NCBI GenBank assembly: GCA_964355785.1
Contig: CAYHEU010000002.1
Location: 1-38,559, forward strand
Source: an uncultured Candidatus Saccharibacteria bacterium
GTDB taxonomy: Bacteria > Patescibacteriota > Minisyncoccia > UBA6257 > 2-01-FULL-56-20
Direction of reading: 5' to 3'
DNA length: 38,559 nucleotides
The position numbers and the translations under genes were made by a program. Under the pieces are notes generated by a model. The model was not told the origin of the DNA. It ran no database searches and worked only from the letters and a program-made list of their open reading frames with translations. Shown one piece after another: positions 17,716 through 35,938 of this stretch (its first letter is position 1; each line of letters opens with the position of its first letter).

Positions 17716-17764
17716 AGTTAGGGGTGAGAATTTAGAATATAGGGATTAGGGTATAATTAAGGAA

Positions 17765-20684: not shown

Positions 20685-20761
20685 GCGGGCGTAGCTTAGC
20701 GGTCTAAAGCGCTGCCCTGTCACGGCAGAGATCGTGGGTTCAAATCCCATCGCCCGCGCCA
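20685..20761 (+). tRNA. tRNA-Asp (anticodon GTC), CCA encoded
   Basis: Acceptor GCGGGCG/CGCCCGC, D-arm TAGCTTAGCGGTCTAAAGC, anticodon stem CTGCC/GGCAG with loop CTGTCAC, T-arm GTGGG-TTCAAAT-CCCAT, discriminator G, then CCA. Confidence 0.9.
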
Positions 20762-22375
20762 TTTGAGACGAATCGAGGCAAGAGCCTCTTCTCTTGTAGA
20801 ATCCAACGGCCTTTTCCACGGTTCTAACTTTTTGTATTCCGTTTCGAGTTCTGGATAAGCATTTCCGATTGGTATGAACCATTCGTACGGAGAAATATTG
20901 AGTTTTCCGTCTTTAAGGACTGAGTTCTGACTGAACCCCTTAAGTATTTCCCGTTTTACCTCTAGAGTACCGAAAAGAAAGGCTTTATGAGCGTATAGAG
21001 CGAAGTTAAATGTCTTTTCAGTCAGTTCTAGCCATTTCTCGGCTCTCGCCTCGGTATCGCGTAAATTAGCCTTGAGTTGAAGTATTTTCTTCTCTAGCTC
21101 ACCCTTCTCTTGGAGAAAAAAATTATCGCCAATCATTTCTCGGTATCGCATTCTGATGAGTTCGTCGAGTTCGCTTTGAGTCTTCACGAGCGTCCTGTTT
21201 TGCATTTCGTAGATTTTGGTCCTATCTTCAATTTCTTTATCGTTCTGTTCGTTAAGAACTTCTAGCGCCCAATCTCTAAACTCGGGCAGAATCGTATATT
21301 TTTCAATTTCGTTTTCAATTTGCAGCTCGATATTTTCCAGCGAAACGGTTTTCCTCTGAGAACAATTAACTTCCACTTTTTTGCGGGTGCAGAAGTAATA
21401 CGTAAAACTTTTGAGCTTATTATCTCTTTTAATCAGTTTAATCTTCTCTATGGCGGTAATCATGCAATTACATTCACCACAGTGCATGCATCCCGTGAAA
21501 GCGAATATGTGTTTCTTGGGCCTAGGCTTACCCTTTCTTCCTAGTAAGACTTGAACTCTGTCAAATTCTTCAAGTGTTACAATGGGGTCATGTTTGCCTT
21601 CGTATAGGTTCCCCTTGTATTCGATAAGACCCGCATAGAATGGATTGGTAAAGATTCTATAAAGGGTGCTTCGAGACATTGGTTTGCCACCTTTCTTTTT
21701 GGTTTGTCTAGTTCTGAATCCCCATTGATTGTTAAGAATTTCAAGAATTTGTGGTGGCGTGTAGTTTCCCGTGAGCATTAAGTCCCACGCCTTGCGGATT
21801 AAATGAAAACGCTCTGGGTCATTCAGTATATAGTTTTCCCCTCGTAGTTCTGTTTTTGTGTTGAGATACCCCGAAGGAGCCGAGCCAGGAAGCCACCCCT
21901 TTTGCCGCTTTGTGTTTAGGCCTCGTTTTACCGCAACACTGCTGTCGTCCGAGTATTTTTTGGCCATTCCAAACTCAAGTTGAAGCATGAATTTGTCCTC
22001 GGGTGTGTTGCGGTAAACTCGCTGCAGAGTTTTAACTTCTACAAGTTTACTTTCATCCATTGCGGTGACTATCCACCCTCCATCAAAGGCATTTCGAGCC
22101 AACCTATTTGGATGCCAAACCAAGAGCCCTCCTGCCTTTCCCGACTCTATTTGTTGCATAACGTGGTTGAAGATAGGCCTACCGCGCTTAAAGGCACTCT
22201 GGCTTTCACCTTTCTCGCTGCCGCCGAATCTTTCAATAACCTTGAGGTGTTCACGTTTTTCTATAGCTGCTAGCTCCCTCTCTTGGTCATCAAGGGAGAG
22301 CATCTGTCTGTCTTCGCTCTCGGTGCTTTTACGGCAGTACAGAATATATTTAATTTTCTCGCTTTCTTGTTTCAT
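20720..22375 (-). CDS. Large serine recombinase (integrase)
   Basis: N-terminal resolvase domain YCRKSTESEDRQMLSLDDQ, recombinase domain, Zn ribbon CMHCGECNCMITA...C, long coiled-coil. ATG at 22375 is preferred over the track TTG at 22462. The last 13 codons and the stop lie antisense in tRNA-Asp. Confidence 0.88.
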   Translation of the reverse strand: MKQESEKIKYILYCRKSTESEDRQMLSLDDQERELAAIEKREHLKVIERFGGSEKGESQSAFKRGRPIFNHVMQQIESGKAGGLLVWHPNRLARNAFDGGWIVTAMDESKLVEVKTLQRVYRNTPEDKFMLQLEFGMAKKYSDDSSVAVKRGLNTKRQKGWLPGSAPSGYLNTKTELRGENYILNDPERFHLIRKAWDLMLTGNYTPPQILEILNNQWGFRTRQTKKKGGKPMSRSTLYRIFTNPFYAGLIEYKGNLYEGKHDPIVTLEEFDRVQVLLGRKGKPRPKKHIFAFTGCMHCGECNCMITAIEKIKLIKRDNKLKSFTYYFCTRKKVEVNCSQRKTVSLENIELQIENEIEKYTILPEFRDWALEVLNEQNDKEIEDRTKIYEMQNRTLVKTQSELDELIRMRYREMIGDNFFLQEKGELEKKILQLKANLRDTEARAEKWLELTEKTFNFALYAHKAFLFGTLEVKREILKGFSQNSVLKDGKLNISPYEWFIPIGNAYPELETEYKKLEPWKRPLDSTREEALASIRLKWRGRWDLNPRSLP

Positions 22376-22540
22376 AAACTCAAAGGGCGGTTCTGGTTGA
22401 CCCAGCCGCTTGCCCACACGGGTAGCCTTCTGGCAGAACCGCCCTTTCAGGGTAGAAGGCAATAAAAATCCGTGTGGATTTGCTTCGGCGGGTCAACGAT
22501 TCAATTGTACCACTTTTTCTCAACATATAAAAGCATCTAA

Positions 22541-22939
22541 TCACTTTAGGCGAGTTATTTTTGCGATAATATAATTCACCAAATCTTGGTTGGACATACC
22601 TGCGAATTTCATCTGAGTCTTATCTTCAAAATCCTCAAAGGTTTGAAGCCACAACTTAACTTCTTGTGCGCTCCCTGTCTTCAGTATTTTCTTATAAAGA
22701 CTCAAAACGACCCTAGGTGTTTTCTCGCGCGCCCATTTCGTTAATTCTCGTTTAACTTGAGAGTTGAAATCGACCCTTTGTTTCCAATCGGAAAGCGTTG
22801 CGTTATCAACCTTTAACTTACTTGCCAATTCTTTTTGGGTCTTCGGTTTCCTAAGTGGGGCTGGAGTCGCAATCCACCTAATAAATTCCCCATATTCGTT
22901 TGCCTTCAAGGGTATACTATTTTTGGCTTGTTTTGGCAT
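22541..22939 (-). CDS. HTH DNA-binding protein (terminase-small-subunit-like / regulator)
   Basis: TQKELASKLKVDNATLSDWK helix-turn-helix in a small basic protein next to replication and integration genes. Confidence 0.5.
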   Translation of the reverse strand: MPKQAKNSIPLKANEYGEFIRWIATPAPLRKPKTQKELASKLKVDNATLSDWKQRVDFNSQVKRELTKWAREKTPRVVLSLYKKILKTGSAQEVKLWLQTFEDFEDKTQMKFAGMSNQDLVNYIIAKITRLK

Positions 22940-22943
22940 ATTT

Positions 22944-23516
22944 TTAGTAGTTCTTAGGAAACGAAAATTTTTTAGACAGTCCCTTCCTCAGTGTTGCATA
23001 ATCTTTACTAAAAAGAGGAAATCCTCCTTTCTTTTCTTTATTTAATCTTTCTTTACTTTCTTTCGGTGACGGTCCTTGTCTGTAAATAAGAGATTTTCGA
23101 TTGACTTCAGTTGGTGCGCTGTTCACTTTTCCGTTAGTGTGCCACCTACTTTTTGGTAGGTGCTTTGCTAACAATCTAGTAAGCAGTGTATTAAATTTTT
23201 CTTGGTCAAATAATTTACTTCGATTCACCTTCCACTCATCTACGTTCACGTTTACCGACACCAAATCGTCTCCTTGATTCCACTCAATCACGCGACGACC
23301 CGCTAGAGTTTCCAACTCTTCCCGAATATCGCTTTTATAAATTCCCGCAAGTTGAAAATCTGTAAGTCTGATTTTTGCTGAATTTCTTTGTTTGCAACCA
23401 TGGGTTAGCCTAAGAACGAATAAAATAATTCTTCGCTGTCTATCTGTAAAGTTGTAGACGTATAGGCTGTCCAAGAGGGAGTTTATAATTTTTGTGAATC
23501 CCTTATTTCTAGTCAT
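22944..23516 (-). CDS. Replication-protein-O-like (phage replisome organiser N-terminal winged helix)
   Basis: FTDRQRRIILFVLRLTHGCKQRNSAKIRLTDFQLAGIYKSDIREELETLAGRRVIEW matches the pattern of the lambda-O N-terminal family as I remember it. Confidence 0.5.
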   Translation of the reverse strand: MTRNKGFTKIINSLLDSLYVYNFTDRQRRIILFVLRLTHGCKQRNSAKIRLTDFQLAGIYKSDIREELETLAGRRVIEWNQGDDLVSVNVNVDEWKVNRSKLFDQEKFNTLLTRLLAKHLPKSRWHTNGKVNSAPTEVNRKSLIYRQGPSPKESKERLNKEKKGGFPLFSKDYATLRKGLSKKFSFPKNY

Positions 23517-23520
23517 CTTA

Positions 23521-23709
23521 TTACGTTGTTGCCTTACGGCGTTTTTGCAGACTTTTGTATTCTTCTTGTGTCATCGGGCTAAACACCAATTTCATCAAAT
23601 TCAGCAAAGCCACCCCTTTTTCCAAGGCCTCTTTCTCGTTTATGTCTTTCCCAAACTGTTTTTTGTATAATGCCTGGAATTTTTTGATTTGAGCCTGCGA
23701 TAACATCAC
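23521..23709 (-). CDS. Small hypothetical protein (62 aa)
   Basis: ORF is tightly packed (4-nt gap) upstream of the replication-like gene on the same strand. No recognisable domain. Confidence 0.4.
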   Translation of the reverse strand: MMLSQAQIKKFQALYKKQFGKDINEKEALEKGVALLNLMKLVFSPMTQEEYKSLQKRRKATT

Positions 23710-23822
23710 CTTTCAGATTACACAGTACTCATAGCTTAAAAAATGCGGAAAAACTTTCTTGCAAAGATAAAAATACCGCAGATTAGAGCGGCGTTTTTTA
23801 GTTATCCACTTTTTAAGTTTTT

Positions 23823-24572
23823 TTAAGCTGCCTTTTTGTCTTTATTCAACCTTGTTTGAAACGCCTTCTCGCTCATAGGGATGACTTCAATATTCGGCCT
23901 TATATACCCATCCTCAATTTTTAGAATCTTAGTCACTCTGTGTCCGAATTTTGAATAGAGCTTGCATTGTTTGTTGGAATTGAAATAGTCGAAAGCTCCT
24001 TTGTGCTTGGATGCCTCAAGGTCTTCTTCCCCCGAGGCAACCCGAAATAGAAAAGACCAGTAATCTTTGTATCCAACGTCGAAAAAGTTTTTGTAGTCGT
24101 CGTTTATAACAACCTTAATACGTCTACCCTTGGGTTCTACGAGTATTAGTTTCTCGATTGCCTCTGATTTATACTTCTTAATCCTTTTCGTACCATATGC
24201 AATCTGGTAGGCCTTGTTGAAATCCTCTAAGCTGGAGACCCTAATTATTAAGTTTTCGTATATATCGGCGGTAGGTATGTTTAGCGCAACGGCGGTTGCG
24301 GTCAAAAGAAGCGATGGAAAATTGCTATTCCCAGTCCGTAGCATTTCTTCGTTGAAAACTTTAAAAATTGGTTTGTTACAGCGGACATTCGCTGTCTTTA
24401 GCGCCATTCGAACCCCTTGATAATCCCACCCCTGCCTCTTCAGTAGTAAGAGAGGGAGCTTTACAATCTTCCTTTCTGCATCAAAATAATCAATCTCTAT
24501 TTGGTCCGAGATAAGCTGAAGCATCCTTTGCATCCGATGAGAGTTGGTTTCAGAGGAGGTAACGTTTTGCAT
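23823..24572 (-). CDS. Hypothetical protein, first gene of the minus-strand module
   Basis: 249-aa ORF with typical composition, preceded by a perfect 23-bp palindrome. No recognisable domain. Confidence 0.5.
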   Translation of the reverse strand: MQNVTSSETNSHRMQRMLQLISDQIEIDYFDAERKIVKLPLLLLKRQGWDYQGVRMALKTANVRCNKPIFKVFNEEMLRTGNSNFPSLLLTATAVALNIPTADIYENLIIRVSSLEDFNKAYQIAYGTKRIKKYKSEAIEKLILVEPKGRRIKVVINDDYKNFFDVGYKDYWSFLFRVASGEEDLEASKHKGAFDYFNSNKQCKLYSKFGHRVTKILKIEDGYIRPNIEVIPMSEKAFQTRLNKDKKAA

Positions 24573-24578
24573 TGTTCT

Positions 24579-24601
24579 ATAGTTAGTAATTTACTAACTA
24601 T
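24579..24601. promoter_or_regulatory. Perfect 23-bp palindrome (candidate operator)
   Basis: ATAGTTAGTAA-T-TTACTAACTAT lies 7 nt upstream of the start of the 23823..24572 gene, in the divergent intergenic region. Confidence 0.45.
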
Positions 24602-24861
24602 CCACGTGATGTTCAATGCCTTGCCTGACAAAGCCGTTCTTTAAAGCTTCATAAAAAAGTGGTTAAATTAGATTGAAAATTAAATATGAGCCTAAACTGC
24701 GCCAGAATGGCGTGGCAGGGCGTAAAAAAGCCCCACAAAGGTATTAAGCTCCTCGTCAGAGCACCTTTGTGGGTCATATGGGGAAACCTATATGGGTGGC
24801 CGCAAGGCCATCGCTGGCGGGGAGCTTTGTATTTAAAGGAGTCCTCCTCTAGCTCCAAGTT

Positions 24862-25860
24862 ATGGAAAGAGAAAGTTCCGAGAATAAAAATAAATCATTA
24901 CAGACAAGAGACTGGGTTGTTAGCAAGAATATTGTTGCGGGAGTTTCCCTGGTAATCGTTGTGGCAGTCTCAATTACTGCCTTAAAGATAAGCACAAACG
25001 AGCAGAAAGGAACTGATGGTGGATTTGCGCTAACAGAAGAAGAAATTACTCGAATATCAAGGTCCGTCGTTGCTGTTCAGTGTTTGTATGATGAGAACGA
25101 TGACGGACAGTGGGACGATGCTATTTATGGCTCGGGAATATATATCGGCGAAGCCTTTATCAGCAGAGAAAGAAGTAAAACCTTTGGGGAAAAATTTACT
25201 CTCTATGATGGATATGTCCTTACTAATGCACACGTCGCACAACTTAAAAGAAAATATAAAGAAAAGTATGACTATAATTTTTGCTCCATTGAAATCTCGC
25301 TACCAGAGTTAGAGCCGTCGCGACGAGGAATTTTCCCGTATGTATACGATGACAAGGCCCATTTTCTGTATGATGGTAAAGTTGACATTGCGCTCTTAAG
25401 ATTTAGTACGGTGCTTCACGGGGAAGAAGTAGTAAATGAGACAAGTAAATTGGTTAACTTCGACCAAAATCTTTTGCGCAACAACATACTTCCGTCTTAC
25501 CCGTTTTGTTCGTATGAAAGAGTTGTTGGGAAAAGAGTTTATATTTTTGGTTATCCAAGCAGTGCCTTTGAATTTGAAAAAATAGAAAGTAGTTTTTTAG
25601 AAGAGCCAACAACAATCATTGCTCAACAGAATCTAATTATTTCCGAAGGCATCATTAGTGGAGTAAACAGTAGCGGAAACTATTACACGACAGCTAGGAT
25701 TGATACGGGGAATTCTGGCGGATTGGCAATCTCAAAATCAGGCGGAGAAATTTGCTTATTGGGAGTTCCGACATGGGTAAGCGAAGGCGAATACGAGAAT
25801 CTAGGTGTTATACAGCCATTTTCTAAACTATTTACTGTTCTCCAGTCGTCTCTTGAATGA
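24862..25860 (+). CDS. Membrane-anchored trypsin-like (S1/chymotrypsin-fold) serine protease
   Basis: N-terminal TM (IVAGVSLVIVVAVSITAL). Catalytic triad contexts VLTNAHVA, VDIALLRF, DTGNSGGLA. Confidence 0.8.
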   Translation: MERESSENKNKSLQTRDWVVSKNIVAGVSLVIVVAVSITALKISTNEQKGTDGGFALTEEEITRISRSVVAVQCLYDENDDGQWDDAIYGSGIYIGEAFISRERSKTFGEKFTLYDGYVLTNAHVAQLKRKYKEKYDYNFCSIEISLPELEPSRRGIFPYVYDDKAHFLYDGKVDIALLRFSTVLHGEEVVNETSKLVNFDQNLLRNNILPSYPFCSYERVVGKRVYIFGYPSSAFEFEKIESSFLEEPTTIIAQQNLIISEGIISGVNSSGNYYTTARIDTGNSGGLAISKSGGEICLLGVPTWVSEGEYENLGVIQPFSKLFTVLQSSLE

Positions 25861-26930
25861 AATACACAGAAAAAATTAAAAGGTTAACATTTGGAGTATT
25901 TAATCTACTCGCTTTCACTGCTGTATTAGCCATAGCTTTCGGGGGGTTGCAGATTCCTTTCACAGGGGATTGGGCGTGGAACTGGATTCTTGGGTTGGTT
26001 TTCATTATTGGATTTTGGCATTTTGCGTATTCTCTTGGTCGGGATGGAAAAGACAAGCAAGTGATTCCGAGTAGGGAAGAAAATCCTCAAAACTTATCGA
26101 ACGAGAAAGCAACAGGCGAAAGGAAAGAGGGAGAAATTGTTTTCCTCCCGACTTATCGCAATCCAAGTAGCCCGAAGCCGTACTGGGAGCATGACCCAGA
26201 GGACAACTTAATCAAAGTTTTAGAAGAGCTGGAAAAAGAAGAGCAGGAAAGACCCAGAATCCTCGCGCATAAGAATCACAACGTACCCCTAATTAAGTGT
26301 AGAAAATGCAGCACCATCTATTGTCCCCTGGAAAAGTATTGCCCTGAGTGCAAGGAGGTTGATGTAAGCAACGTTGAAATTCGAGAACAATGGCGGCGCG
26401 AGTTAATAACGTTTTCCGATAACTGGGGCTCGTCAGTCGAAGACGCTATTGTGATTAGAGGTGCAGAGAGCCAATCCGAAGGGATTGCCGTCGAACATCG
26501 CTATTTACAAGGCAAATATGGTGAGCGTAGAGAAGATTGGGATTTATTGGTACAGCAACTTATCCATGACGGCGGAAGAAGCTATGACCAAATGGAGCTA
26601 TCTCTTCTGCCAGATGGCTTCAAAGAAACTTTGTATTTTGACATTACGGATTTTTTTGGTAAGCAAACGCCAGCATTGACGCGAGCAGCCGAGGAAATAA
26701 TGAGTTATAAGGACGTCGAGGATGCAGGGCGCCAACTGGTCCAAAATATGAATGCCACAAGGAAAATTTCAGAGACCCTATTTGCTGTCTACTCTTACGT
26801 GTGCGAAATTTTTGATGGGAAGCGAGGTAGGTTTTTAGAAATTGTGGCCACAATAATAGGTATAATTTTTGGTATATATTTTCTGACACTTTTCGTAGCG
26901 GTTATCTTTTGGTTATATGAGAATTTTTGA
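25857..26930 (+). CDS. Membrane protein with central Zn ribbon and a soluble domain of unknown function
   Basis: ATGA overlap with the protease stop (translational coupling). Two N-terminal TMs and one C-terminal TM. CRKCSTIYCPLEKYCPECK ribbon. Soluble domain ...AIVIRGAESQSEGIAVEHRYLQGKYG...YDQMEL...LYFDITDFFGK. Confidence 0.6.
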   Translation: MKYTEKIKRLTFGVFNLLAFTAVLAIAFGGLQIPFTGDWAWNWILGLVFIIGFWHFAYSLGRDGKDKQVIPSREENPQNLSNEKATGERKEGEIVFLPTYRNPSSPKPYWEHDPEDNLIKVLEELEKEEQERPRILAHKNHNVPLIKCRKCSTIYCPLEKYCPECKEVDVSNVEIREQWRRELITFSDNWGSSVEDAIVIRGAESQSEGIAVEHRYLQGKYGERREDWDLLVQQLIHDGGRSYDQMELSLLPDGFKETLYFDITDFFGKQTPALTRAAEEIMSYKDVEDAGRQLVQNMNATRKISETLFAVYSYVCEIFDGKRGRFLEIVATIIGIIFGIYFLTLFVAVIFWLYENF

Positions 26931-27080
26931 AACCGCACAACATGGAACTGTGAGCGAGTGGTATCAAGCTGCGAAAGCGCAGGGCTATCTGGTGCCGCTC
27001 CCCAATGTGCCATGGACTAAGTTAACTAATGAAAGCTAAGAGTACGAATCTTTTAGAAGCATTTAATTTTCTCATAAAAC

Positions 27081-27881
27081 ATGGGAAAATCATCCTGGTT
27101 GGTAAATCTTACATCTACGATTTATCAGCCTCCAAATTATGGGATAATGGTTTCAATGGAAGAGAAGAAATTAACTCAAGCAGATTTCGAAAAACTTGAA
27201 AAAGAGTTTCTGACTAATCTCCAGAAGATATTTAGTGATATTACGGCTTCTATCAGAATTTTACGCAAGCGAAATAAGGCATTCGTCAAAAGCGAGCTGT
27301 GTTTAGCTTTTACTGCTGCCGATACTTTCTCCCGTTTCTATAAAATTTTTCAAGGTTCTTCCGAGGAAGAATTGGATAAGTGGAGTGAGGATAGATTCAA
27401 GGCTTGGATGCAGGACTTTGTATTCAATAACGCGAACGAAGTGTACAAAGTTCATAAGGAAGACATAGCTTGTGATACTGGCCTTGCGTGGAAACTTCGC
27501 TGTTCCTTACTGCACTTTTATGGGTTACCTAGTCCAAAAAGCACTGGCGGGAGAGTCGGCTTCATGGGTGGAAATCCCGAAGAAGTAATGAAGATGAGAG
27601 AGGAATTTAGTAAAAGAGGAAAACATATACAACTCGTACATCCGTACTGGTTAGTCGAGGCAATTTTGAGTGGCTTATTGGTACAGTTGCAGAGCATGGT
27701 GAAAATGATTCGAGAAAACCCCAACGCCTATATTAAGGGGGTAAGGTTGGCACACAAGATTATCATGTCCGAAGGTGCAATTTTTGTTGACATTGAAAAA
27801 ATGATGCGACAGACGGGCATTCGCAAATGGAAGAGCAAAGTACAAACCCTCCTTGGTTACCTCCGAAAACGTATAAGTTAA
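27081..27881 (+). CDS. Hypothetical alpha-helical protein with HEPN-type Rx4H motif
   Basis: LAWKLRCSLLHFYG (R140..H145, nt 27498..27515) in a predicted helical protein. The start is uncertain; internal ATGs fall at codons 23 and 26. Confidence 0.45.
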   Translation: MGKSSWLVNLTSTIYQPPNYGIMVSMEEKKLTQADFEKLEKEFLTNLQKIFSDITASIRILRKRNKAFVKSELCLAFTAADTFSRFYKIFQGSSEEELDKWSEDRFKAWMQDFVFNNANEVYKVHKEDIACDTGLAWKLRCSLLHFYGLPSPKSTGGRVGFMGGNPEEVMKMREEFSKRGKHIQLVHPYWLVEAILSGLLVQLQSMVKMIRENPNAYIKGVRLAHKIIMSEGAIFVDIEKMMRQTGIRKWKSKVQTLLGYLRKRIS

Positions 27882-27888
27882 CTCTCAG

Positions 27889-28593
27889 GTGCCAAAAACC
27901 CCAAACGGAATAATTGGATTTTTCAGTTACAGTCTTGAAGACAAGCAGCAGAATAATTTTGACCTACATCACGCACGAAAAGTTTTTGACTTAAAAATCA
28001 CCAATACGTTTCCTTTGGTTACTTTAAACAGTGAGGGCGAGCAATTTGTACAGAACAGTTCTGGGGGTATCGGGAAATCGTCCATTGAATTTCAGCATTT
28101 TTCTATCCCTCCAGACCTAGAAGTCCATCTGAGTGGTCCCGCAGGACATCAATTTTTCGAGACTGACCTCGTTGACCCCAAAACGAAGGAGATGAAAAGA
28201 GATTTTATTCACATGTTTAGTTGGCTAAGTAAGCCAATAGTGCACTATCAATATTTTCCAAAAGGCACTTGGTATGGTGCAGCGTTGATAACTTTGATAC
28301 CTGGCCAAGAACATACTCAAAACACTGGTCTTTTCGTTGATTTTTTTGTGCATCGAAAACTCACTGATTACAGCCAGGCTAAAACCTTTCAGCTACAAAA
28401 CCCAACCTGCTACTTTATGCGCCCAAGTGAAGAGAAATCATACCTCTTTGGCCCTTACGACTTTTATGGCGACGATGTTTTTAGAGGGAAAAATCCTAGC
28501 GTAAAGGGGGCAAATTTTTTCACTATACGTTTTGGTTTTTATGAGTGTAGAGATGGGAATTCGAAATTAGTAATACCCTTTAAACCAAGGTAA
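27889..28593 (+). CDS. Hypothetical protein (no recognisable domain)
   Basis: GTG start 7 nt after the previous stop. 234-aa ORF, aromatic-rich and probably beta-rich. Confidence 0.45.
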   Translation: MPKTPNGIIGFFSYSLEDKQQNNFDLHHARKVFDLKITNTFPLVTLNSEGEQFVQNSSGGIGKSSIEFQHFSIPPDLEVHLSGPAGHQFFETDLVDPKTKEMKRDFIHMFSWLSKPIVHYQYFPKGTWYGAALITLIPGQEHTQNTGLFVDFFVHRKLTDYSQAKTFQLQNPTCYFMRPSEEKSYLFGPYDFYGDDVFRGKNPSVKGANFFTIRFGFYECRDGNSKLVIPFKPR

Positions 28594-28686
28594 TATTTCC
28601 AGAGGCCACGAGCTTTGGTTGTATTATAATGCCGTCTATGTCGGGCAAAACCAAATCAAAGACTAGCTATTAATTTACTACAAGAT

Positions 28687-29775
28687 ATGACAAGGAACAG
28701 AGCCATTTTTCTTGCATTCACGGGACAAGAAATTGAGCAGTCGGAGCACACCTCTGAAATACGGGATGGCTATGAATGCTGGAATCTCAAAAAATTTACT
28801 CTAGCCGAATTTATTAAAGCGCTTCAAGGCAAGATACCGCCAGTTAACGATAATGTCCTTCGGAACTATGCGAGAAACGAAGACAACACACAGGACATAT
28901 TTGGTATTACCGAAAGACTTTTCAAAGAGTGTTCTTGGGGCCTGCTCATTCCCGATAGCTTGGAGGATGCTGTGGGTAACTATGCGGAGACGATTTTCTT
29001 AGTTAACCTGTATTCTCCAACGTTTCTTTACCCACTATTTTATGCTGGCGACATGGGCATCACACGTCCAGTGCATGACCGAGAAATTTTCGAATTTGCC
29101 CACTATCAAAATCAAGCACCCCTTTTCAAAAGAAAGGAATTTGTTTCTTTCTTCAAGACCATGCTTCCACAATCTCAGTACGGGACATGGATGCTCTATC
29201 GTGCTCAGAGGTGGGATGAAGAGGACTGGCGACTATTCGTTGCGGGGATGCTTTTTTCTGGTCTTAGAGATTACGACAATAGAAAAACATCGTTTGGCTG
29301 GCAGAGGGAATCTGCTGATATGGGAGCGGTTCTTGAATCACTATTCACCGCAGGAGATTCTCACAACGAAGAGGTTGGATACAGATTGCGGAAGCGCGTA
29401 GCAGTGCTTTTGTCAAAGAGATTCCCATCAATCGAGGAAGATATTAAACAGCTCTACGCACAGCGGAGTGCATTTGTGCATGGAGCGTTTTTTGCACAAA
29501 TTGCGCGAGATAGCAAAGATGCCTTTAACAATCTCCCAATTCCAGATTTTAACCTCTTGTATCAACAAAAAGAGTATGTCCGATGGGCACTGGTTGCCTA
29601 TCTCCATCTGGCACAACTCGTAAAATCGAAGCCAGCCCCATATGGCGGCGCAACAAAGGTTATTAGAGTGCTCGAAAACTCAATTATAGATATGGAGTTG
29701 CGAAAGAAAGTCCTTGCAGATGTCGAGAAAGTTCTTTCTTTGTTGCCCAAACCGAGGGGATACGACGAGACTTAA
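28687..29775 (+). CDS. Hypothetical protein with C-terminal HEPN-like domain (Apea-like pattern)
   Basis: LYAQRSAFVHGAFF (R260..H265, nt 29464..29481) preceded by helical segments. The RS..VHG pattern resembles HEPN RNase active-site helices. Confidence 0.5.
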   Translation: MTRNRAIFLAFTGQEIEQSEHTSEIRDGYECWNLKKFTLAEFIKALQGKIPPVNDNVLRNYARNEDNTQDIFGITERLFKECSWGLLIPDSLEDAVGNYAETIFLVNLYSPTFLYPLFYAGDMGITRPVHDREIFEFAHYQNQAPLFKRKEFVSFFKTMLPQSQYGTWMLYRAQRWDEEDWRLFVAGMLFSGLRDYDNRKTSFGWQRESADMGAVLESLFTAGDSHNEEVGYRLRKRVAVLLSKRFPSIEEDIKQLYAQRSAFVHGAFFAQIARDSKDAFNNLPIPDFNLLYQQKEYVRWALVAYLHLAQLVKSKPAPYGGATKVIRVLENSIIDMELRKKVLADVEKVLSLLPKPRGYDET

Positions 29776-29864
29776 CGGTCTTTAGTGTAAGAGCTTTTAA
29801 GTACATAGGCACGAGCAAGGAATATTGATTAGCGAGTGGAAAACTGGTTTTTTCTACTCTCATC

Positions 29865-29873
29865 TGCTATAAT
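29865..29873 (+). promoter_or_regulatory. Extended -10 box TGCTATAAT
   Basis: TGnTATAAT match about 265 nt upstream of the HD-domain gene, at the start of an ORF-free structured region. Confidence 0.35.
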
Positions 29874-30022
29874 ATGAGTGTAAGTTTGACAATGTAGGTG
29901 TCGTTCGTACACGCAATCACGAATCGCTTCTTTCTCCCCGCTGGGGTAGGCAAACTGGGAAATCTGCAGGGAGCCAAATGAAATAAGCGACTAACCACGA
30001 AAGGCGGTTGGGAGATTTCAAT

Positions 30023-30069
30023 CTAAGAGATAGCAATATCTTTTGGTGAAATCTCTTAGCCGCTTTTTT
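30023..30069 (+). terminator. Terminator-like hairpin plus U-tract inside the leader of the HD-domain gene
   Basis: CTAAGAGAT (30023..30031) pairs with ATCTCTTAG (30051..30059), followed by CCGC and TTTTTT (30064..30069). Competing pairings exist (see finding). Confidence 0.4.
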
Positions 30070-30138
30070 CGTTTTCGGGGAGGTCGAGTGAAAACGAAGA
30101 ACGAGCTAATAGTCGAAAAAAATAACAAAAACAAATCT

Positions 30139-30726
30139 ATGAACAATACACAAAATCTCGTAGAGAAGGCCATAGCGAAAGCAATAGAGCTTCACAAAGG
30201 GCAAGTAAGAAAAGGGGATGGCAAAATTCCTTATGTCGTGCACCCCTTTGAAGTTGGCATAATCGTTGCGCGATATACCAATAGCCCAGAGCTCGTTGCC
30301 GTAGCCATCCTTCACGATACCGCAGAGGATTGTAAATACCCTCTTGAAGAACTAGAGAACGAGTTTGGAAGCGAGGTAAAAAATATCGTATCTACGCTCA
30401 CGGAGAATAAAGCAATTTCTGATTGGGCGGACCGAAAGATAGAAAACATTAAACGCTTGCGATTGAATCAGGAAGCCTACTTCATCAAAAGCGCCGATGC
30501 ACTTGCAAATATGCGTTCGCTTCTCACGGCAATAAAGGAAGAAGGTTCCATTGTGTGGTCCCGATTCAACGCCCCGAAAGAAAAGAAGATGGATTACTTC
30601 AAGGTTATCCTTCAAGACACAGAGGATTTTCTTCCGAAGAAGCTCATTGAAGACTATGTCTCGGCCCTAAAAGACCTTGAATACTCAGAGTTTCTGGAGA
30701 AAGAATCAGCCTTTGGATTTGCGTAA
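30139..30726 (+). CDS. HD-domain (p)ppGpp/alarmone hydrolase-like protein (SpoT/Mesh1-type small alarmone hydrolase)
   Basis: AIELHKGQVRKGDGKIPYVVHPFEVGII...VAVAILHDTAEDC...L...FG..V...V..LTE is the classic HD hydrolase core. ATG at 30139 is preferred over the track start at 30043. Confidence 0.75.
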   Translation: MNNTQNLVEKAIAKAIELHKGQVRKGDGKIPYVVHPFEVGIIVARYTNSPELVAVAILHDTAEDCKYPLEELENEFGSEVKNIVSTLTENKAISDWADRKIENIKRLRLNQEAYFIKSADALANMRSLLTAIKEEGSIVWSRFNAPKEKKMDYFKVILQDTEDFLPKKLIEDYVSALKDLEYSEFLEKESAFGFA

Positions 30727-30812
30727 GGAAAAAACGTCCGCTGTACAACTTTAGCAGCATTCTCAGGAGGTTATTTGAAAACACCTATCGAGGAGAGTAC
30801 ATTGAGATTGAT

Positions 30813-31328
30813 ATGAGAAGACACGTTATCGGTATTATGACCTCCCTCCTATTACTGGTCCCAATTGCTAGCTTTGCTCATCCTGGGCGAACGGATAGTT
30901 ACGGATGCCACACGTGCCGCACGAATTGTCCTTCGTGGGGGCTAAGTTCTGGAGAATATCATTGCCATCATGCCAAGGCGTTACCACAACCAGAACCGCC
31001 TATTAGGAGCCGTTACGGCGAATATGGAACTGGATACACGGAGCCAGCGCCTGACTACGCGAAGCCTGTCTCGCCCGTAACTCCGACTCTCGCACCAAAG
31101 CCTGTACCATCGTACCAGCCGCAGTCACCACAATACGCGCCCGAACCCAAGGTAGAATTTTTGCAACCAAAAAAAGAAAGCGTTGACGCCGCTTCTCCAT
31201 CCAACCAACTCCAAGAAATAGAGGAAAAGTATTCACCCTCTCAACAAGCGGCGGTAGTGCATAACAATCAACCTCAGGAGGGATTTTGGAAGCGACTGTT
31301 TGGTTGGTTCGCAAATCTTTTTGATTAG
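30813..31328 (+). CDS. Secreted YHYH-domain protein with Pro/Gln-rich tail
   Basis: Signal peptide, then HPGRTDSYGCHTC....GEYHCHH, matching the YHYH motif pattern. Confidence 0.65.
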   Translation: MRRHVIGIMTSLLLLVPIASFAHPGRTDSYGCHTCRTNCPSWGLSSGEYHCHHAKALPQPEPPIRSRYGEYGTGYTEPAPDYAKPVSPVTPTLAPKPVPSYQPQSPQYAPEPKVEFLQPKKESVDAASPSNQLQEIEEKYSPSQQAAVVHNNQPQEGFWKRLFGWFANLFD

Positions 31329-31331
31329 CCA

Positions 31332-31607
31332 ATGAAAAAATTAATCGTTTGGATTCTACTCGTTAGTGGGGTTGTCGGAGGTATATGGTGGTTTAATTCC
31401 AATAATTCTCAGAGTTCTAAGACCAGTTTTGAGCGTCTCGATAATCCGAATATAGAACGCTCTTTCTCTTCAGGCGATTACGACTGTTCTGATTTTTCCA
31501 CCCAAGATGAAGCACAGACATTCTTTGAATCAGAAGGCGGGCCTAGCGACGACCCTCATAATTTAGACAGAGATGGTGATGGTGTGGCCTGCGAGTCGTT
31601 GCCGTAA
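31332..31607 (+). CDS. Excalibur calcium-binding domain protein
   Basis: N-terminal TM. C-terminal [16 protein letters not shown]...[18 protein letters not shown] matches the Excalibur signature. Confidence 0.75.
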
Positions 31608-31976
31608 GACGTGAATAGGTTATACGGAAAAGAGCGAAATACACAAAGAATTAGAAGGTTTAGTGCATTAAGGAATTAGAGCGAGCAGTATTGACGATTT
31701 AAACCCAGACCATCACGACAGAGTCCAAATCGCCATCGGTCTCCTAAACGCTGAGTCGGCAGAAAAAATTACCAAATCCATAGACAAGTTAGTTGAATCA
31801 AATGAGACGAGCGGCAAAATAAGCGGTAAAGCGATATTCTGGAGCAAGGTCCTTACTATTGCACTAATTTGCGTTACCTTGATTGTGGGGTTGTTACAGG
31901 CGTACGTGATTTGGAAAACTTCAACTTTCGGCCAAGCTGAAACACAAGATTTTTCATCCGAGCCCACTCAATAAAA

Positions 31977-32453
31977 ATGGAAACAGAAAACCTTTCTGCA
32001 AAGGACGACATTATTAGGGGCGATAAAGCCATCTTGGGCTATTTAGTTGAAAACTGTATATCTGCCTATGATGAATTGTGCAAAGTAAATCGAGAGCTTG
32101 TTGAGGGAATGGCACCAAACTCAAATGCCGACGTAAATCGTTTGGGTATGATGAACAGGGTACTTCAAGATTACGTAATTATTCGCGTTGGTGGACTGTT
32201 TGATAGGGTGAAATATAAGACAAGAGGCGAAACCGATGAAGTCATCTCTTTCGAAAAGCTATATTCTGGTGACAAAGGGCTTGAAAACGTAAAAGGGCAA
32301 GAAATCATAAAATACATTATTAAGCAAAGGCATAATTTTACTGCACACACTAACCGAAATCATATAGAAAAAAACTTCCCAGTGACGGCCAAGATTTGCG
32401 ATTCTAACCTAAAGACATTATTGGAAATCTTGCAAAAATTATTAAAAAGCTAA
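31977..32453 (+). CDS. Hypothetical helical protein with HEPN-type Rx5H motif (AbiU2-like pattern)
   Basis: IIKQRHNFTAHTNRNH (R118..H124, nt 32328..32348) near the C-terminus of a 158-aa helical protein. Confidence 0.4.
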   Translation: METENLSAKDDIIRGDKAILGYLVENCISAYDELCKVNRELVEGMAPNSNADVNRLGMMNRVLQDYVIIRVGGLFDRVKYKTRGETDEVISFEKLYSGDKGLENVKGQEIIKYIIKQRHNFTAHTNRNHIEKNFPVTAKICDSNLKTLLEILQKLLKS

Positions 32454-32586
32454 TCATCGCCAACGAACCGTGAGTACCTCGATGCGGCGGGTTCGATTAA
32501 ATCCCCCCAGATAAATCAGGTATATAAACATAACCTTTTCGCCTAGCAATTACAGTTCTAACGTCGTCTACGACCCCGCGCAGCCT

Positions 32587-32626
32587 AAAACAAAAACAGC
32601 CCCGCCACGGCGGGGCTGTTTTTGTT
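32587..32626. terminator. Bidirectional rho-independent terminator
   Basis: A-tract AAAACAAAAA, GC-rich hairpin CAGCCCCGCC-AC-GGCGGGGCTG, T-tract TTTTTGTT. Serves the minus-strand gatA operon and the plus-strand island genes. Confidence 0.75.
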
Positions 32627-32765: not shown

Positions 32766-34214
32766 TCAGAGCTTCTCGTAATATTCCCCAAGCGCGAAAA
32801 GGTCTCCTTCTCCCAACATTTTTCCGATGAGCTGGAATCCCACGGGGAGGGGAAGATCGCCTTTTATAGGAATTGATATTGCCGGGAGCCCTGCGAGATT
32901 CACGGGAATCGTAAAAATATCAGAAAGGTACATCGAGAGCGGATCTGCGGTTTTCTCTCCGATTGCGAATGCAGTCGTAGGAGAAGTGGGCGCGAGGATT
33001 ACATTCACTTCTTTGAACGCATCGTCGAAATCTTTCTTTACCAGCGTTCTTACCTGTTGAGCTTTTCTGTAGTACGCGTCGTAGTAGCCGGACGAGAGCA
33101 CAAACGTCCCGAGGATAATACGCCGTTTCACCTCGCTTCCGAAACCGAGCCCCCGCTGTTTAAAATAGATCTCCCGAAGCGTGCGGTGCTGGTGATCGGG
33201 GTTTGAAGCCCGAATCCTCGAGTAGCGGACGCCGTCAAAGCGGGCAAGATTCGCGCTCGCCTCCGCAGGGAGAATTATGTAATAACAGGAGAGCGCGTAT
33301 TTGGAATGCGGAAGAGAAATTTCCTTGAACCGTATCCCAAGGGATTTCAGATCTTTTATCGCCGTCTCTACCGCGTCATTCACGCTTTTTTCAAGCTTGT
33401 AGGAAAAATATTCTTTCGGGATGCCAATCGTAAAATTCTTAATTTCTTCAAAAGACGGCTTCTTGAAACGTTTGTGGTGCTCCATGGGTAAGCTTGTCGC
33501 GTCCTGGGAATCATGCCCTCGGATTGCCCTATAGAGAATTTCCGCGTCCGCAACCGTTTTTGTGATCGGACCGATTTGATCCAAGCTTGAGGCAAGTGCG
33601 ATAAGTCCCGAGCGGGAAACTGTTCCATAGGTCGGTTTGAATCCGACTACTCCGCAGAGCCCGGCCGGCTGGCGGATTGATCCGCCGGTGTCGGACCCTA
33701 AAGCTCCGAGCGCCATATGGGCCGCGACCGCCGCGGCTGATCCTCCGGAAGACCCTCCCGGAACTCGCCTTGGATCGTACGGATTCCGTGTGATCTGAAA
33801 GGCCGAATTCTCGGTTGAAGATCCCATCGCGAACTCGTCGAGGTTCGTCTTGCCGAGGAAAACTGCTTTGCGGTGCTTCAGTTTTTTTATTACCCCCGCA
33901 TCATATGCGGCCGTGTAGTTCCCGAGGATTTTCGAGCCCGCAGTTGCGGGGAGTTTCTTTATCAAAATATTGTCCTTGATCGCAAGAGGAACGCCCGCGA
34001 GCTCGTCGATTTCTTCTCCCTTCGCGATTGCAAGGTCGACTTTTTCCGCGGCTCTTGCCGCTCCCTCTTCGTCCAAACTCAAATACGCGCCGATTTTCTT
34101 GTCAGCATCCTTAATATGAGAGAAGAACGTCTGGGCGATCTCAAGCGCCGAAAACTCTTTGCGGATAAGTCCCGCGTGAAATTTTTTGATCGTAAGATCC
34201 TTAAGCGCGTTCAT
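32766..34214 (-). CDS. gatA: Glu/Asp-tRNA amidotransferase subunit A (amidase signature family)
   Basis: Amidase signature [12 protein letters not shown]...[15 protein letters not shown] at 34214 ([13 protein letters not shown]...) starts 1 nt after the gatC stop. The track start at 34376 runs through repeat sequence. Confidence 0.92.
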
Positions 34215-34215
34215 A

Positions 34216-34560
34216 TTATTCTCCGCCAGAGGCGCCCGCCTGCCGGACGGGCAGGGATCCGCCTTTGGCGGAGAAAACCGCAGGGATCTTGAGAAATCCG
34301 CCTTGTTCTTCGGGAAAGCTTTCTCTTCCGGCACCGCGATTAGAGTTCTCGCCTTCGGCGTCATCTCGGAATACATTCTTGAGCGACGTTCCGCCGCTCA
34401 TCGGCTCTACTCCCCGCGTGTCAAGTTCCTGGAGCTCTTTGAAGTAGCCGACGATTTTTTGAAGATCCTTCAGAATTTTCTCTTCCTCACGAGTGTTGAG
34501 CTCAATGCGCGTGAGTTCCGTAAGATGTTTCAATGTTTTTTTGTTGATTGGCGAAGCCAT
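34216..34560 (-). CDS. gatC: Glu/Asp-tRNA amidotransferase subunit C with repeat-encoded C-terminal tail
   Basis: MASPINKKTLKHLTELTRIEL...LQELDT...FLKIPAVF is GatC-like. The extra tail SAKGGSLPVRQAGASGGE is encoded by palindromic repeats. Alternative start at 34578. Confidence 0.75.
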   Translation of the reverse strand: MASPINKKTLKHLTELTRIELNTREEEKILKDLQKIVGYFKELQELDTRGVEPMSGGTSLKNVFRDDAEGENSNRGAGRESFPEEQGGFLKIPAVFSAKGGSLPVRQAGASGGE

Positions 34561-34566
34561 AAGAAT

Positions 34567-34631
34567 AGGACTTAGCAATTAGAATTTAGGACTTTCCGCC
34601 AAAGGCGGACCAGCCTTGGGCTGGAGGGCTT
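34567..34631. repeat. Intergenic copy of the composite palindromic repeat (between murD and gatC)
   Basis: AGGACTTAG...AGAATTTAGGACTT, then palindrome TCCGCCAAAGGCGGA (34595..34609), then palindrome CCAGCC-TTG-GGCTGG (34610..34624). Confidence 0.7.
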
Positions 34632-34651
34632 AGTGTGACGTTAAAATAATT

Positions 34652-35938
34652 TTAACGCGCTTTTATTGCTTTGACTAATTTTTTGAATTGCCTGCCGCGG
34701 TCGGCGTAGTTTTGGAACTGATCAAAACTCGCGGCGCCGGGTGAGAACACGATACAGGACTTTCCGCCCGAGGCGGATCCGCCTTTGGCGGAAGAACTTA
34801 GGACGTAGGACTTAGTAGTATACTTGTAGGCGGTGCGGATTGCCTCGGACAAGTTTTCTGCGATTGCGATTTTGACGCCACGGTTTTTGATGGCGCGGTG
34901 GATTTTCTTTTTGTTTTCACCGAAGAGAATCACAAGTCGCGTGCTTGAATTTTTGAGGGCCTTCGCAAGCGGCGCGTAATTCAATCCTTTGTCTTGGCCG
35001 CCAGCGATAAGGATGTGTGGTTCGTTTTTGAATGCGCCCACAGCGGCAGCGGCGGTGTGCGGGTTAGTTGAGGCCGAATCGTTGTAGAATTTCACTCCCG
35101 AAACGTTCTTTATAAACTCCAGGCGGTGTTCAAGTCCGCGAAAGCTTTTTAGCGTTTTCACTATAGTGCGGTCCGGGATACCGAGCGAACGCGCAACGGT
35201 TGCTGCCATTATCGCATTGCGGTATGCGTGCGCGCCTATGAGCTTCAAGTCTTGGGGATCGACGAAAGGTGCGGAATTTTGGGATACCAAAATTTTTCTA
35301 CCCCTCCCTTTTGTTGCAATGCTTCTTGTGAGCGGATTGTCCGCAAAGAAAAAGACGAGATCGCGGGGATTTTGCCACCGAACAATGTTTGCTTTTGCGC
35401 CGTAGTATTCCCTTACGCTTTTATGGTGATCCAGATGCTCCGGAAAAGCATCAAGCACGACTGCGATGTGGGGCGAAGCGGGGAGATCATGAAGCTGAAA
35501 ACTTGAGAGTTCGAGCACGACCCACGAGGTTTTTTTTAGCTTCTTTGTGATGTTGAGCGGGGATTCGCCGATATTTCCGGCAAGATATACGTCTTTGCCC
35601 GCCGCTTTGAGGATTTCATAGATAAGCGTTGCAGTCGTGCTTTTCCCCTTACTGCAGGTGATTCCGATGATATTGCGTGTGGGGGAGTGGGTGAAAAAAA
35701 GAATTGTTGCGCTTGAAAATTTCACCCCGTTGCACCGTGCCCGGAATAAACGCGGGTGCGAGTATGGAATGCCCGGAGTTCTGAATACAAGATCAAAACA
35801 TTCAAGATTTTTTAAATAGTCCGGGTCGGTTTTTTGATCAAGAATTTCAATCTCCGCTTTTTTGTAGCGCGGATGTTTTTTAATGAAACGCAGAACTGAT
35901 TTCCCTTCCCGTCCGAAGCCGAGAATCGCAATTCGCAT
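34652..35938 (-). CDS. murD: UDP-N-acetylmuramoyl-L-alanine--D-glutamate ligase MurD
   Basis: MRIAILGFGREGKS Rossmann start, GITCSKGKSTTATL P-loop, C-terminal FSPGAASFDQFQNYADRGRQF. Confidence 0.9.
   Translation of the reverse strand: MRIAILGFGREGKSVLRFIKKHPRYKKAEIEILDQKTDPDYLKNLECFDLVFRTPGIPYSHPRLFRARCNGVKFSSATILFFTHSPTRNIIGITCSKGKSTTATLIYEILKAAGKDVYLAGNIGESPLNITKKLKKTSWVVLELSSFQLHDLPASPHIAVVLDAFPEHLDHHKSVREYYGAKANIVRWQNPRDLVFFFADNPLTRSIATKGRGRKILVSQNSAPFVDPQDLKLIGAHAYRNAIMAATVARSLGIPDRTIVKTLKSFRGLEHRLEFIKNVSGVKFYNDSASTNPHTAAAAVGAFKNEPHILIAGGQDKGLNYAPLAKALKNSSTRLVILFGENKKKIHRAIKNRGVKIAIAENLSEAIRTAYKYTTKSYVLSSSAKGGSASGGKSCIVFSPGAASFDQFQNYADRGRQFKKLVKAIKAR
34757..34815. repeat. Copy of the composite palindromic repeat translated in frame inside murD
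   Basis: Tandem palindromes TCCGCCCGAGGCGGA (34763..34777) and TCCGCCTTTGGCGGA (34778..34792), flanked by AGGACTT / TTAGGACGTAGGACTTAG. Encodes TKSYVLSSSAKGGSASGGKS in MurD. Confidence 0.75.

Follow-up and report, generated by a model that had tools for sequence, protein, structure and literature searches.

A short palindromic repeat, TCCGCC-N3-GGCGGA, was analysed in a 38,559-nucleotide (nt) contig of an uncultured Candidatus Saccharibacteria bacterium (GenBank assembly GCA_964355785.1, contig CAYHEU010000002.1; this whole stretch is referred to as the window), where it recurs in the region 34216-34815, which Pfam and Protein Data Bank (PDB) matches identified as part of a minus-strand operon, murD-gatC-gatA. 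In both murD and gatC the repeat is predicted to be read in frame, and comparison with relatives indicates that it was inserted into genes that formerly lacked it. The genes and repeats of the locus are as follows.

32766..34214, minus strand: gatA, amidase subunit (Pfam Amidase, E = 6e-147).
34216..34560, minus strand: gatC, a host gene, longer by a 17-codon insert (Pfam GatC; PDB alignments).
34652..35938, minus strand: murD, a host gene, UDP-N-acetylmuramoyl-L-alanine--D-glutamate ligase (Pfam Mur_ligase_M and Mur_ligase_C; PDB MurD match, E = 6e-49).
34222..34272, minus strand: insert of 51 nt (17 codons) in gatC, separating its last Phe codon from its last Glu codon, predicted translation SAKGGSLPVRQAGASGG, predicted fold -43.5 kcal/mol, z = -4.8.
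34234..34254, minus strand: nested 21-nt type-C palindrome CTGCCCGTCCGGCAGGCGGGC with core CCTGCC-N5-GGCAGG, splitting the second gatC module (hairpin at 34239-34255).
34561..34594, minus strand: heptamer array AAGTC CTAAATT CTAATTG CTAAGTC CTATTCTT, directly upstream of the gatC ATG (families D3, I8 and I9; homologue in the related contig L001).
34595..34624, minus strand: pair in the murD-gatC spacer, coding strand CCAGCC-CAA-GGCTGG then TCCGCC-TTT-GGCGGA, within the heptamer array (family D8).
34756..34762, minus strand: AAGTCCT, what is left, 3' of the murD pair, of the heptamer unit that the pair interrupts, predicted translation K-S-(C).
34763..34792, minus strand: inverted pair of 15-nt modules in murD, coding strand TCCGCC-AAA-GGCGGA TCCGCC-TCG-GGCGGA, predicted translation SAKGGSASGG (MurD residues 383-392).
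34793..34815, minus strand: tandem heptamer array in murD that hosts the pair, coding strand CTAAGTC CTACGTC CTAAGTT CT, predicted translation (T)KSYVLSS.

The start of gatC (ATG at 34560) was assigned by homology, the nearest relative, L001, using the homologous ATG. The exact pattern TCCGCCNNNGGCGGA (TCCGCC-N3-GGCGGA) occurred four times in the 38.5-kb window, at 34258, 34595, 34763 and 34778, all within 540 bp, as against an expectation of 0.01 per window in 100 shuffles; these are the four exact hairpins named in the first-pass annotation of this DNA, and the degenerate copy that it placed at 34222 was recovered with 2 mismatches and proved to be an intact module split by the nested 21-nt palindrome. 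GC-rich hairpins with 6-bp stems numbered 12 in the whole window versus ~2.5 in shuffles, with half of them (6/12) inside 34239-34792, including CCAGCC-N3-GGCTGG (34610) and CCTGCC-N5-GGCAGG (34239), and the predicted folding z-scores at the three window sites were -2.4, -2.7 and -4.8. The basic unit is a 15-nt module with perfect 6-bp stems, most commonly present as a 30-nt inverted pair, and because the lengths of modules and composites (15, 21, 30 and 51 nt) are all divisible by three, the reading frame is never broken.

At murD the coding strand reads ACT-(CTAAGTC CTACGTC CTAAGTT CT)-(TCCGCCAAAGGCGGA)(TCCGCCTCGGGCGGA)-(AAGTC CT)-GT ATC GTG TTC, that is, a 30-nt heptamer array broken by a 30-nt module pair, with TKSYVLSS-SAKGGSASGG-KS as the predicted joint product (...YKYTTKSYVLSSSAKGGSASGGKSCIVFSPGAASFDQF... 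as first read). The spacer has a layout like that of murD, CTAAGCC CT-(CCAGCCCAAGGCTGG)(TCCGCCTTTGGCGGA)-AAGTC CTAAATT CTAATTG CTAAGTC CTATTCTT-ATG; its copy at 34595 lies between genes, 35 nt upstream of the gatC ATG (34560), and its two stems followed by AAGTCCT were also found in L026, a metagenome-assembled genome (MAG) labelled Verrucomicrobia. The 3' end of gatC reads GTT TTC-(51 nt)-GAA TAA, where the 51 nt comprise TCCGCCAAAGGCGGA plus TCC^GCCTCTGGCGGA (TCCGCC-AAA-GGCGGA plus TCC^GCC-TCT-GGCGGA, with ^ marking a junction), the second module being split by CTGCCCGTCCGGCAGGCGGGC, and GatC is accordingly predicted to end in ...FLKIPAVFSAKGGSLPVRQAGASGGE*. The MurD and GatC translations quoted in the first-pass annotation, and its assignment of one copy to an intergenic position, were correct. 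Since the ATG of gatA lies 1 nt past the gatC stop codon, the insert now occupies the gatA translation-initiation region; its 3' end, at 34216-34232, gives rise to GGCGGAGAATAATATG, in which a GGAG stands 8-11 nt upstream of the gatA start codon, a motif that L001 lacks and that in the predicted fold is buried in the -43.5 kcal/mol structure.

Filled and empty sites were compared using L001, a 2-kb contig with the same murD-gatC order whose MurD is the closest homologue (76% protein identity) and whose DNA is 81.5% identical to the window over the locus. In murD, the window carries a clean 30-nt insertion at TTCT^AAGT, inside a heptamer array common to both; the L001 array reads CTAAATC CTATATC CTAAATT CT, with AACTCCT coming straight after TTCT and no pair between them. 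L001 murD has in its turn a clean 21-nt palindrome, CCTGCCTCGCCGGCAGGCAGG, at AATC^CTAT, one heptamer unit upstream of the window's site and identical at 17 of 21 positions to the palindrome nested in the window gatC. The L001 murD-gatC spacer holds heptamers only, and L001 GatC ends in ...IPAVFE*, relative to which the window has an exact 17-codon insertion between F and E (TTC^GAA). Two further relatives have GatC termini without the palindrome (...VPPVFEQT* and ...IPPVFGSE*), solved GatC structures end ~4 residues past the same point in PDB alignments, alignment with solved MurD structures leaves 16 residues unmatched, as a gap, at the window insert, and the ten hairpin-encoded MurD residues (SAKGGSASGG) were found in none of 41 aligned relatives. 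Equivalent MurD and GatC segments, which the first-pass annotation had named as the observation that would count against it, were thus missing from relatives without the palindrome. Because SAKGGSASGG and the gatC tail are lacking in relatives and structures, and the DNA differs by clean indels, the hairpin-encoded peptides are insertions. No target-site duplication was present at any of the filled-versus-empty comparisons, nor across the heptamer junctions.

In the AlphaFold model of window MurD (mean predicted local distance difference test score, pLDDT, 89.1), helix 363-382 and strand 395-398 flank the insert, and residues 385-390, within the insert, form the only segment of the protein with pLDDT <50. 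Among 120 MurD homologues, seven besides window MurD carried module-derived inserts, located at four other sites (after window residues 83, 112, 198 and 328), each at a helix or strand end and each corresponding to an exact 5- or 10-residue gap in the remaining homologues. For two of these homologues the DNA confirmed the modules, one nested copy being read in the P-P-x-A-D frame.

The units AAGTCCT / CTAAGTCC, which the first-pass annotation described as frequent flanks of the palindrome, do stand beside the hairpins but are not part of them: they are separate tandem heptamer repeats that also occur at the same two places in L001, which has no such hairpins. An element including AAGTCCT was rejected, as flanks were unrelated in a pair search made without that string. 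Judged from sequence comparison, the heptamer arrays constitute an older repeat system separate from the hairpin modules, and the first half of the murD insert (TKSYVLSS) derives from an array ancestral to the window and L001 genomes. In most related MurD proteins, VFSPGAASFD is preceded by a variable segment of 0-20 aa (alignment A1), examples being LLPTPYSLL and SVVSSQWSAV; in two relatives the DNA at this site consists of tandem heptamers of other sequence (CTACTCC, CTAMATT; L002:3320-3360 and L003:11150-11190), and the peptide periodicity in P0036 (SSQWSAV) suggests that heptamers may be present there likewise. The MurD site before VFSPGAASFD is a heptamer-array hot spot within an essential gene.

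A metagenome scan for the exact 30-nt pair TCCGCCNNNGGCGGATCCGCCNNNGGCGGA revealed that it is abundant, with at least 120 loci; the statistics on flanks and frames given here rest on 123 copies listed therein. Flanks of the listed copies were unrelated save for T at -2 (104 copies), T at -1 (77), A at +1 (76) and A at +2 (103). The first loop of the pair was nearly always xxA (AGA, AAA, GGA, GAA and others) and the second Txx (TTT, TCT, TTC and others), with RRA then TYY as typical forms and a palindromic pair centre, A-GGCGGA^TCCGCC-T; from this loop pattern, the pair represents two modules in inverted orientation, i.e. an inverted dimer. A perfect duplication-inversion was rejected as the origin of the pair, the loops being complementary no more often than by chance (15 observed versus ~15 expected). 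Eight of the 123 listed copies (6.5%) lay in heptamer arrays of various sequence, as compared with 0.23% of random positions, in a joined-flank test in which the 7-nt phase ran on across the junction after removal of the pair; the association was not seen in a test with strict one-sided thresholds. Hairpin loops were a further location, flank complementarity of at least 7 nt being found in 6 listed copies versus ~0.6 expected, and ~8 listed copies came directly after an ATG, giving predicted N-termini of the form MSAKGGSASGGK... Extra copies in the element-bearing loci amounted to ~15 in roughly 800 kb, or ~1 per 50 kb. Carriage by phages was discounted, since only 2 loci fell in IMG/VR viral contigs.

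Related stems were CCAGCC/GGCTGG and the 20-21-nt CCTGCC..GGCAGG. A second palindrome family with the consensus CCTGCCTGCCGGCAGGCAGG (20 nt, with 21-nt variants in coding DNA) was observed at L069:6004 and in L022, L059, L097, L131 and L138; the L069 copy lies in a tRNA D-loop-like sequence, and the family also has nested members in the gatC tail of the window and the murD array of L001.

A separate genome scan required an AAGTCCT flank, and the GGTTC...AAGTCCT T-loop enrichment among its hits is a consequence of that search pattern. Copies were recovered from MAGs labelled Patescibacteria, including Liptonbacteria, Kerfeldbacteria and Doudnabacteria, and also from MAGs labelled Verrucomicrobiota/Kiritimatiellales, Omnitrophota, Ignavibacteriota, Bacteroidota and others, phylum labels that depend on binning. 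Many of these copies lay in T-loop- or anticodon-loop-like sequences of tRNA fragments beside real tRNA genes. In seven loci (L024:1478-1640, L026, L028, L030, L039, L011 and L025) a partial second copy of the tRNA 3' half, consisting of the T arm and acceptor strand, stands directly downstream of real tRNA genes, with two hairpin modules breaking up its T loop (GGTTC^AAGTCC); the first of these hairpins has, in three lineages, a ~20-nt AT-rich loop, and in L039 the 3'-half unit and a terminator are tandemly repeated. Ignavibacteriota and Bacteroidota MAGs (L023:1860-1950 and L035:5520-5700) contain tRNA-fMet-like sequences whose D- and T-loop regions are full of GC-rich hairpin inserts and which are followed by a terminator, and in Verrucomicrobiota/Pontiellaceae MAGs (L012, L013 and L029) pseudo-tRNA-Leu units stand in tandem and carry modules in their anticodon and T loops. 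A Thiocapsa sp. MAG (L021) has, on the reverse strand at ~2996-3063, a clustered regularly interspaced short palindromic repeat (CRISPR) array with no fewer than 106 repeats; among its spacers, AGTTACTTTGATT-TCCGCCTCTGGCGGA-AAGTCC contains a single module with typical TT...AA flanks.

Residence within genes was the prevailing condition in the metagenome set: 75 of the 123 listed copies (~61%) had 40 or more open codons on both sides within an open reading frame (ORF), and strong Pfam matches were obtained for 18 of the 20 longest host ORFs. Hosts identified by Pfam comprised genes for DNA repair and replication (RecG, MutL, GyrB, UvrD, UvrC twice and PolX), for translation and RNA (AlaRS, a CCA-adding/poly(A) polymerase family member and GatB) and for other functions (an ABC1 kinase, a ComM-like protein, an acyl-CoA synthetase, PGI, solute-binding proteins twice, an HMGL-like enzyme and a class-V aminotransferase). 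The GatB of L071 showed an exact 10-residue gap in alignment with PDB 3al0_B, and in a Kerfeldbacteria MAG the pair was read in frame as SAQGGSASGGKS inside a long ORF, which we tentatively take, from its sequence, to be ATP synthase alpha. The three reading frames, S-A-x-G-G, R-x-x-R-I-R and P-P-x-A-D, were represented in the ratio 65 : 3 : 9 (84% S-A-x-G-G), whereas a target-only model built from the flank preferences predicted 0.44 : 0.18 : 0.38; given this excess of S-A-x-G-G, selection on the encoded peptide is needed besides target preference.

Polymorphic among relatives, free of target-site duplication, biased in target and in frame, and situated in loops, the hairpins are in our view, with a probability of roughly 0.78, copies of a palindromic insertion module, very small, non-autonomous and selfish, on which selection acts as a filter. 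Insertion of the modules is precise and leaves no target-site duplication; the target is a T^A-type step, with T at -2 and A at +2. They favour hairpin loops, tandem heptamer arrays and TTY^RAA codon junctions, DNA that would readily become single-stranded or fold, and they also insert into one another, while selection retains mostly copies read as S-A-x-G-G-S-A-x-G-G in surface loops or at protein termini. The window records three such events, one each in murD, in the murD-gatC spacer and at the gatC 3' end, and in two cases the insertion was into a pre-existing heptamer array. The module would move by copying from other copies; candidate movers are a single-strand HUH/RAYT-type transposase (RAYT, the tyrosine transposase associated with repetitive extragenic palindromic, or REP, sequences) and template-switch or gene-conversion copying, and the insertion features fit the single-strand 'peel-and-paste' HUH transposition proposed for REP sequences and REP doublets forming hairpins (REPINs) with RAYT (PMC3116915).

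Several points weigh against this interpretation. No mobilising gene was found among the window ORFs scanned, and a tblastn search for IS200/RAYT homologues in 1.16 Mb of element-bearing loci yielded one weak RAYT-like ORF only. Current activity would follow from presence/absence polymorphism, and the peptides are predicted translations of the DNA. Some MurD insert sites are common to orthologues only ~55-60% identical in protein sequence, with stems still perfect, which implies recurrent insertion at TTY^AAR hot spots or homogenisation. Finally, four copies in 540 bp as against ~1 per 50 kb elsewhere means that local spread or a hot spot is needed in addition; the clustering points to hopping over short distances, to gene conversion or to a hot spot formed by the heptamers. 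Nothing convincing pointed to linkage of the modules to IS200/RAYT genes in the window or the 1.16 Mb of loci. The RAYT-like ORF, at L039:6825-7526 (minus strand) in a module-bearing MAG labelled Gammaproteobacteria, has an HVH motif and the sequence WQPRFHDHLIR...YIKNNP, contains an internal repeat-like segment (ETRHGAS twice) and gave no Pfam match at E <= 1e-4.

The competing explanation that fares best, although we regard it as unlikely, dispenses with a transposable module: in heptamer arrays prone to slippage, the hairpins would arise and spread locally through replication slippage, template switching or gene conversion. It would account for the confinement of all four exact window copies to 540 bp, when other element-bearing contigs have ~1 per 50 kb, for the location of two of the three events in tandem heptamer arrays, and for the existence of nested copies. 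The same 30-mer nevertheless occurs in at least 120 unrelated contexts or genes, in MAGs labelled as several phyla, with only 6.5% of listed copies in heptamer arrays; the indels are clean 30- and 21-nt blocks with no expansion of local sequence; and the stems TCCGCC/GGCGGA are invariant between loci, where an origin independent of a donor predicts varying stems.

Somewhat less probable still is a role of the hairpins as selected cis elements, whether terminators or attenuators, RNase III or mRNA-stability sites, devices of gatC-gatA translational coupling, protein-binding sites or DNA-uptake sequences. The predicted folds are indeed stable (the z-scores given above), two sites lie at gene junctions, with the gatC insert supplying the GGAG before gatA, and the window encodes a type IV pilus and competence-type machinery. 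However, the intrinsic terminator or attenuator reading was rejected, as no T tract follows any hairpin and a scan of 34100-34950 called no terminator at the modules, and a known RNA family was likewise rejected, as the region has no Rfam match and the window's only matches, LOOT RNA and a tRNA, lie elsewhere. Most other copies are deep in unrelated ORFs at non-homologous positions, the hairpins are missing at the orthologous junctions of relatives, the stems are invariant and not covarying, and the density is far under that of uptake sequences. A perfect bidirectional intrinsic terminator (AAAACAAAAACAGCCCCGCC-ACG-GCGGGGCTGTTTTTGTT) is present downstream of gatA at 32590-32625 and is unrelated to the modules.

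We consider it very improbable that Ser/Ala/Gly-rich peptides were selected as flexible protein linkers, the DNA palindrome being a by-product of codon choice. The S-A-x-G-G frame of 84% of copies and the placement of inserts in loops would accord with selected linkers, but every copy uses identical codons, the other two frames account for twelve copies, and copies also occur in non-coding DNA, tRNA-like loops and heptamer arrays; moreover, the palindromic dimer architecture has no protein-level rationale, and among the 120 MurD homologues no synonymous, non-palindromic coding of the same peptide was found at orthologous sites. An assembly or sequencing artefact has a negligible chance of being the cause, for although palindromes can yield chimeric reads, nothing specific points to this here, the same architecture recurs in many independent projects and assemblers (JGI, ENA Hainich, NCBI MAGs, Logan), and frame is always preserved inside long ORFs.

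The insertion module is like Rickettsia palindromic elements (RPEs) in behaviour, but it is no RPE, REP or MITE (a transposable element of the miniature inverted-repeat kind). RPEs are ~105-150 bp long, comprise ten sequence families and occur in Rickettsia only (PMC10969869 and PMC3184786, summarising Ogata et al. 2000, 2002). With them the module shares the character of a hairpin-forming, selfish-looking palindromic repeat placed in frame in unrelated housekeeping genes at positions tolerated by the fold, and both occur in non-coding DNA as well. It differs in size (module 15 nt, pair 30 nt, largest composite 51 nt, all short of RPE length), in sequence, as judged by description, and in its hosts, being found in Patescibacteria (by homologue names) and in MAGs labelled as other phyla, and ~61% of listed module copies are deep in ORFs with one frame dominant. 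The proposal of the first-pass annotation, an RPE-like family active in this lineage, therefore stands as regards in-frame behaviour, whereas the family is not restricted to the lineage and its activity would be read from the presence/absence polymorphism.

REP sequences carry a conserved GTAG or CGTC tetranucleotide at one end of the palindrome (PMC3733652). Like REPs and REPINs, the modules are short GC-rich hairpins whose inverted dimer appears as the mobile form and which leave no target duplication (PMC3116915, PMC3733652), and a single-strand HUH mechanism would suit their preference for hairpin loops. In contrast to REPs, they lack a GTAG/CGTC head, starting instead with TCCG or CCAG flanked by T..A, and they are not extragenic, 75 of the 123 listed pairs being deep in ORFs and two of the three window sites coding; each monomer is itself a perfect 15-nt palindrome, and no RAYT was found in the window and one doubtful candidate in the 1.16 Mb of loci. 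GC clusters, double-hairpin elements and repetitive hairpin-forming elements of mitochondria are similar in that they are GC-rich hairpins, single or double, measure a few tens of nt and invade AT-richer DNA, with rRNA or tRNA regions and occasionally coding sequence among their targets, but they belong to the organelles of fungi, sponges, algae and nematomorphs and differ in sequence (PMC2800124, PMC2670323, PMC6649704).

MITEs have terminal inverted repeats, target duplications and lengths of ~50-500 bp, whereas the modules show no duplication and measure 15-30 nt. Closer in size are the cyanobacterial small dispersed repeats (SDRs) SDR4-6, which Elhai et al. in 2008 reportedly described as very small (about 20-30 nt), mobile-looking modules situated in short palindromic or repeated sequences, a typical SDR being 21-27 nt long, with a sequence specific to its family, and sitting at a fixed position of a host repeat. 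The genomes that host cyanobacterial SDRs are rich in tandem heptamers. By description, the modules resemble SDRs in tiny size, precise insertion and heptamer-rich host genomes, and differ from them in sequence and host phyla; to our knowledge, predominant in-frame residence in essential genes is not an SDR feature. SDR5 inserts precisely between the 3rd and 4th nt of the HIP1 palindrome (PMC4390886). In a full-text literature search of incomplete coverage, so that an earlier description is possible, module DNA and peptide strings matched unrelated synthetic linkers only, and no paper tying such elements to Patescibacteria was found.

Selfish DNA inside essential genes is regarded as an oddity of Rickettsia and a few organelles. 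The same in-frame behaviour is encountered here with a far smaller unit (15 nt), in streamlined Patescibacteria genomes and, it appears, further afield, and it is the minimal size, the wide distribution and the predominance within essential genes (gyrB, mutL, recG, uvrC, alaS, gatB and murD) that set the module apart. It accounts for recurrent low-complexity loops and tails of the 'SAKGGSASGG' type in proteins of these bacteria, which annotators should treat as parasitic inserts rather than functional motifs; it provides a simple sequence signature with which to follow insertion and selection in uncultured bacteria; and it poses a defined search, for an enzyme that moves 15-nt palindromes, possibly by a new insertion mechanism. 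A bolder idea, which we put forward tentatively and would sooner doubt than accept, is that the module might be the founding member of a previously undescribed, cross-phylum class of ultra-small, 'loop-invading' mobile DNA, in which an enzyme would paste palindromes of 15 nt into T^A steps, leaving the target unduplicated and seeding Ser/Ala/Gly loops, MSAKGGSASGGK... N-termini and C-terminal tails in a sizeable share of Patescibacteria essential proteins and decorating tRNA-like sequences in other phyla. If true, such a class would be a general force in protein-length evolution in the reduced genomes of Patescibacteria.

Further tandem-heptamer arrays, of the TAGGGAT, TAGAATT and CAAAAGT types, were observed in the window at 573-592, 2106-2197, 9478-9560 and 17713-17804, several of them as inverted pairs forming hairpins, and the array at 9516-9560 is read in frame as a predicted pilin leader (KPLNSKFYPLNTHSGFTLIELLVV). 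A 421-nt unit at 10689-11109 has 38-nt inverted heptamer repeats (84% complementary) around a 23S_rRNA_IVP / bAvd-like four-helix-bundle ORF, and the ORF at 10723-11598 continues in frame from this unit into a type IV pilin (N_methyl motif, residues 130-152). The likeness here concerns the heptamers, not the hairpins: Coxiella's 23S rRNA has an IVS (intervening sequence), an element of the kind that encodes S23p four-helix-bundle proteins, which is 428 nt long, with a 28-bp terminal inverted repeat and tandem heptamers (PMC4990558), and the 421-nt unit resembles it but is not in rRNA, and the murD and spacer arrays are one-sided and without an ORF. Genes for S23p four-helix bundles were not enriched near the modules, only 3 further copies being found in ~1.1 Mb of element-bearing loci.

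Elsewhere in the window, a low-GC block at ~20700-32500 (0.37-0.45 versus 0.50-0.57 elsewhere) separates ligA/tRNA-Asp (20685-20761) from gatA and opens with a large serine recombinase (20720-22462, minus strand). Because ligA lies near gatA in relatives, the block looks like an integrated island, and a full-length LOOT RNA (RF03000, 84.5 bits) was located at 24689-24812 within it.

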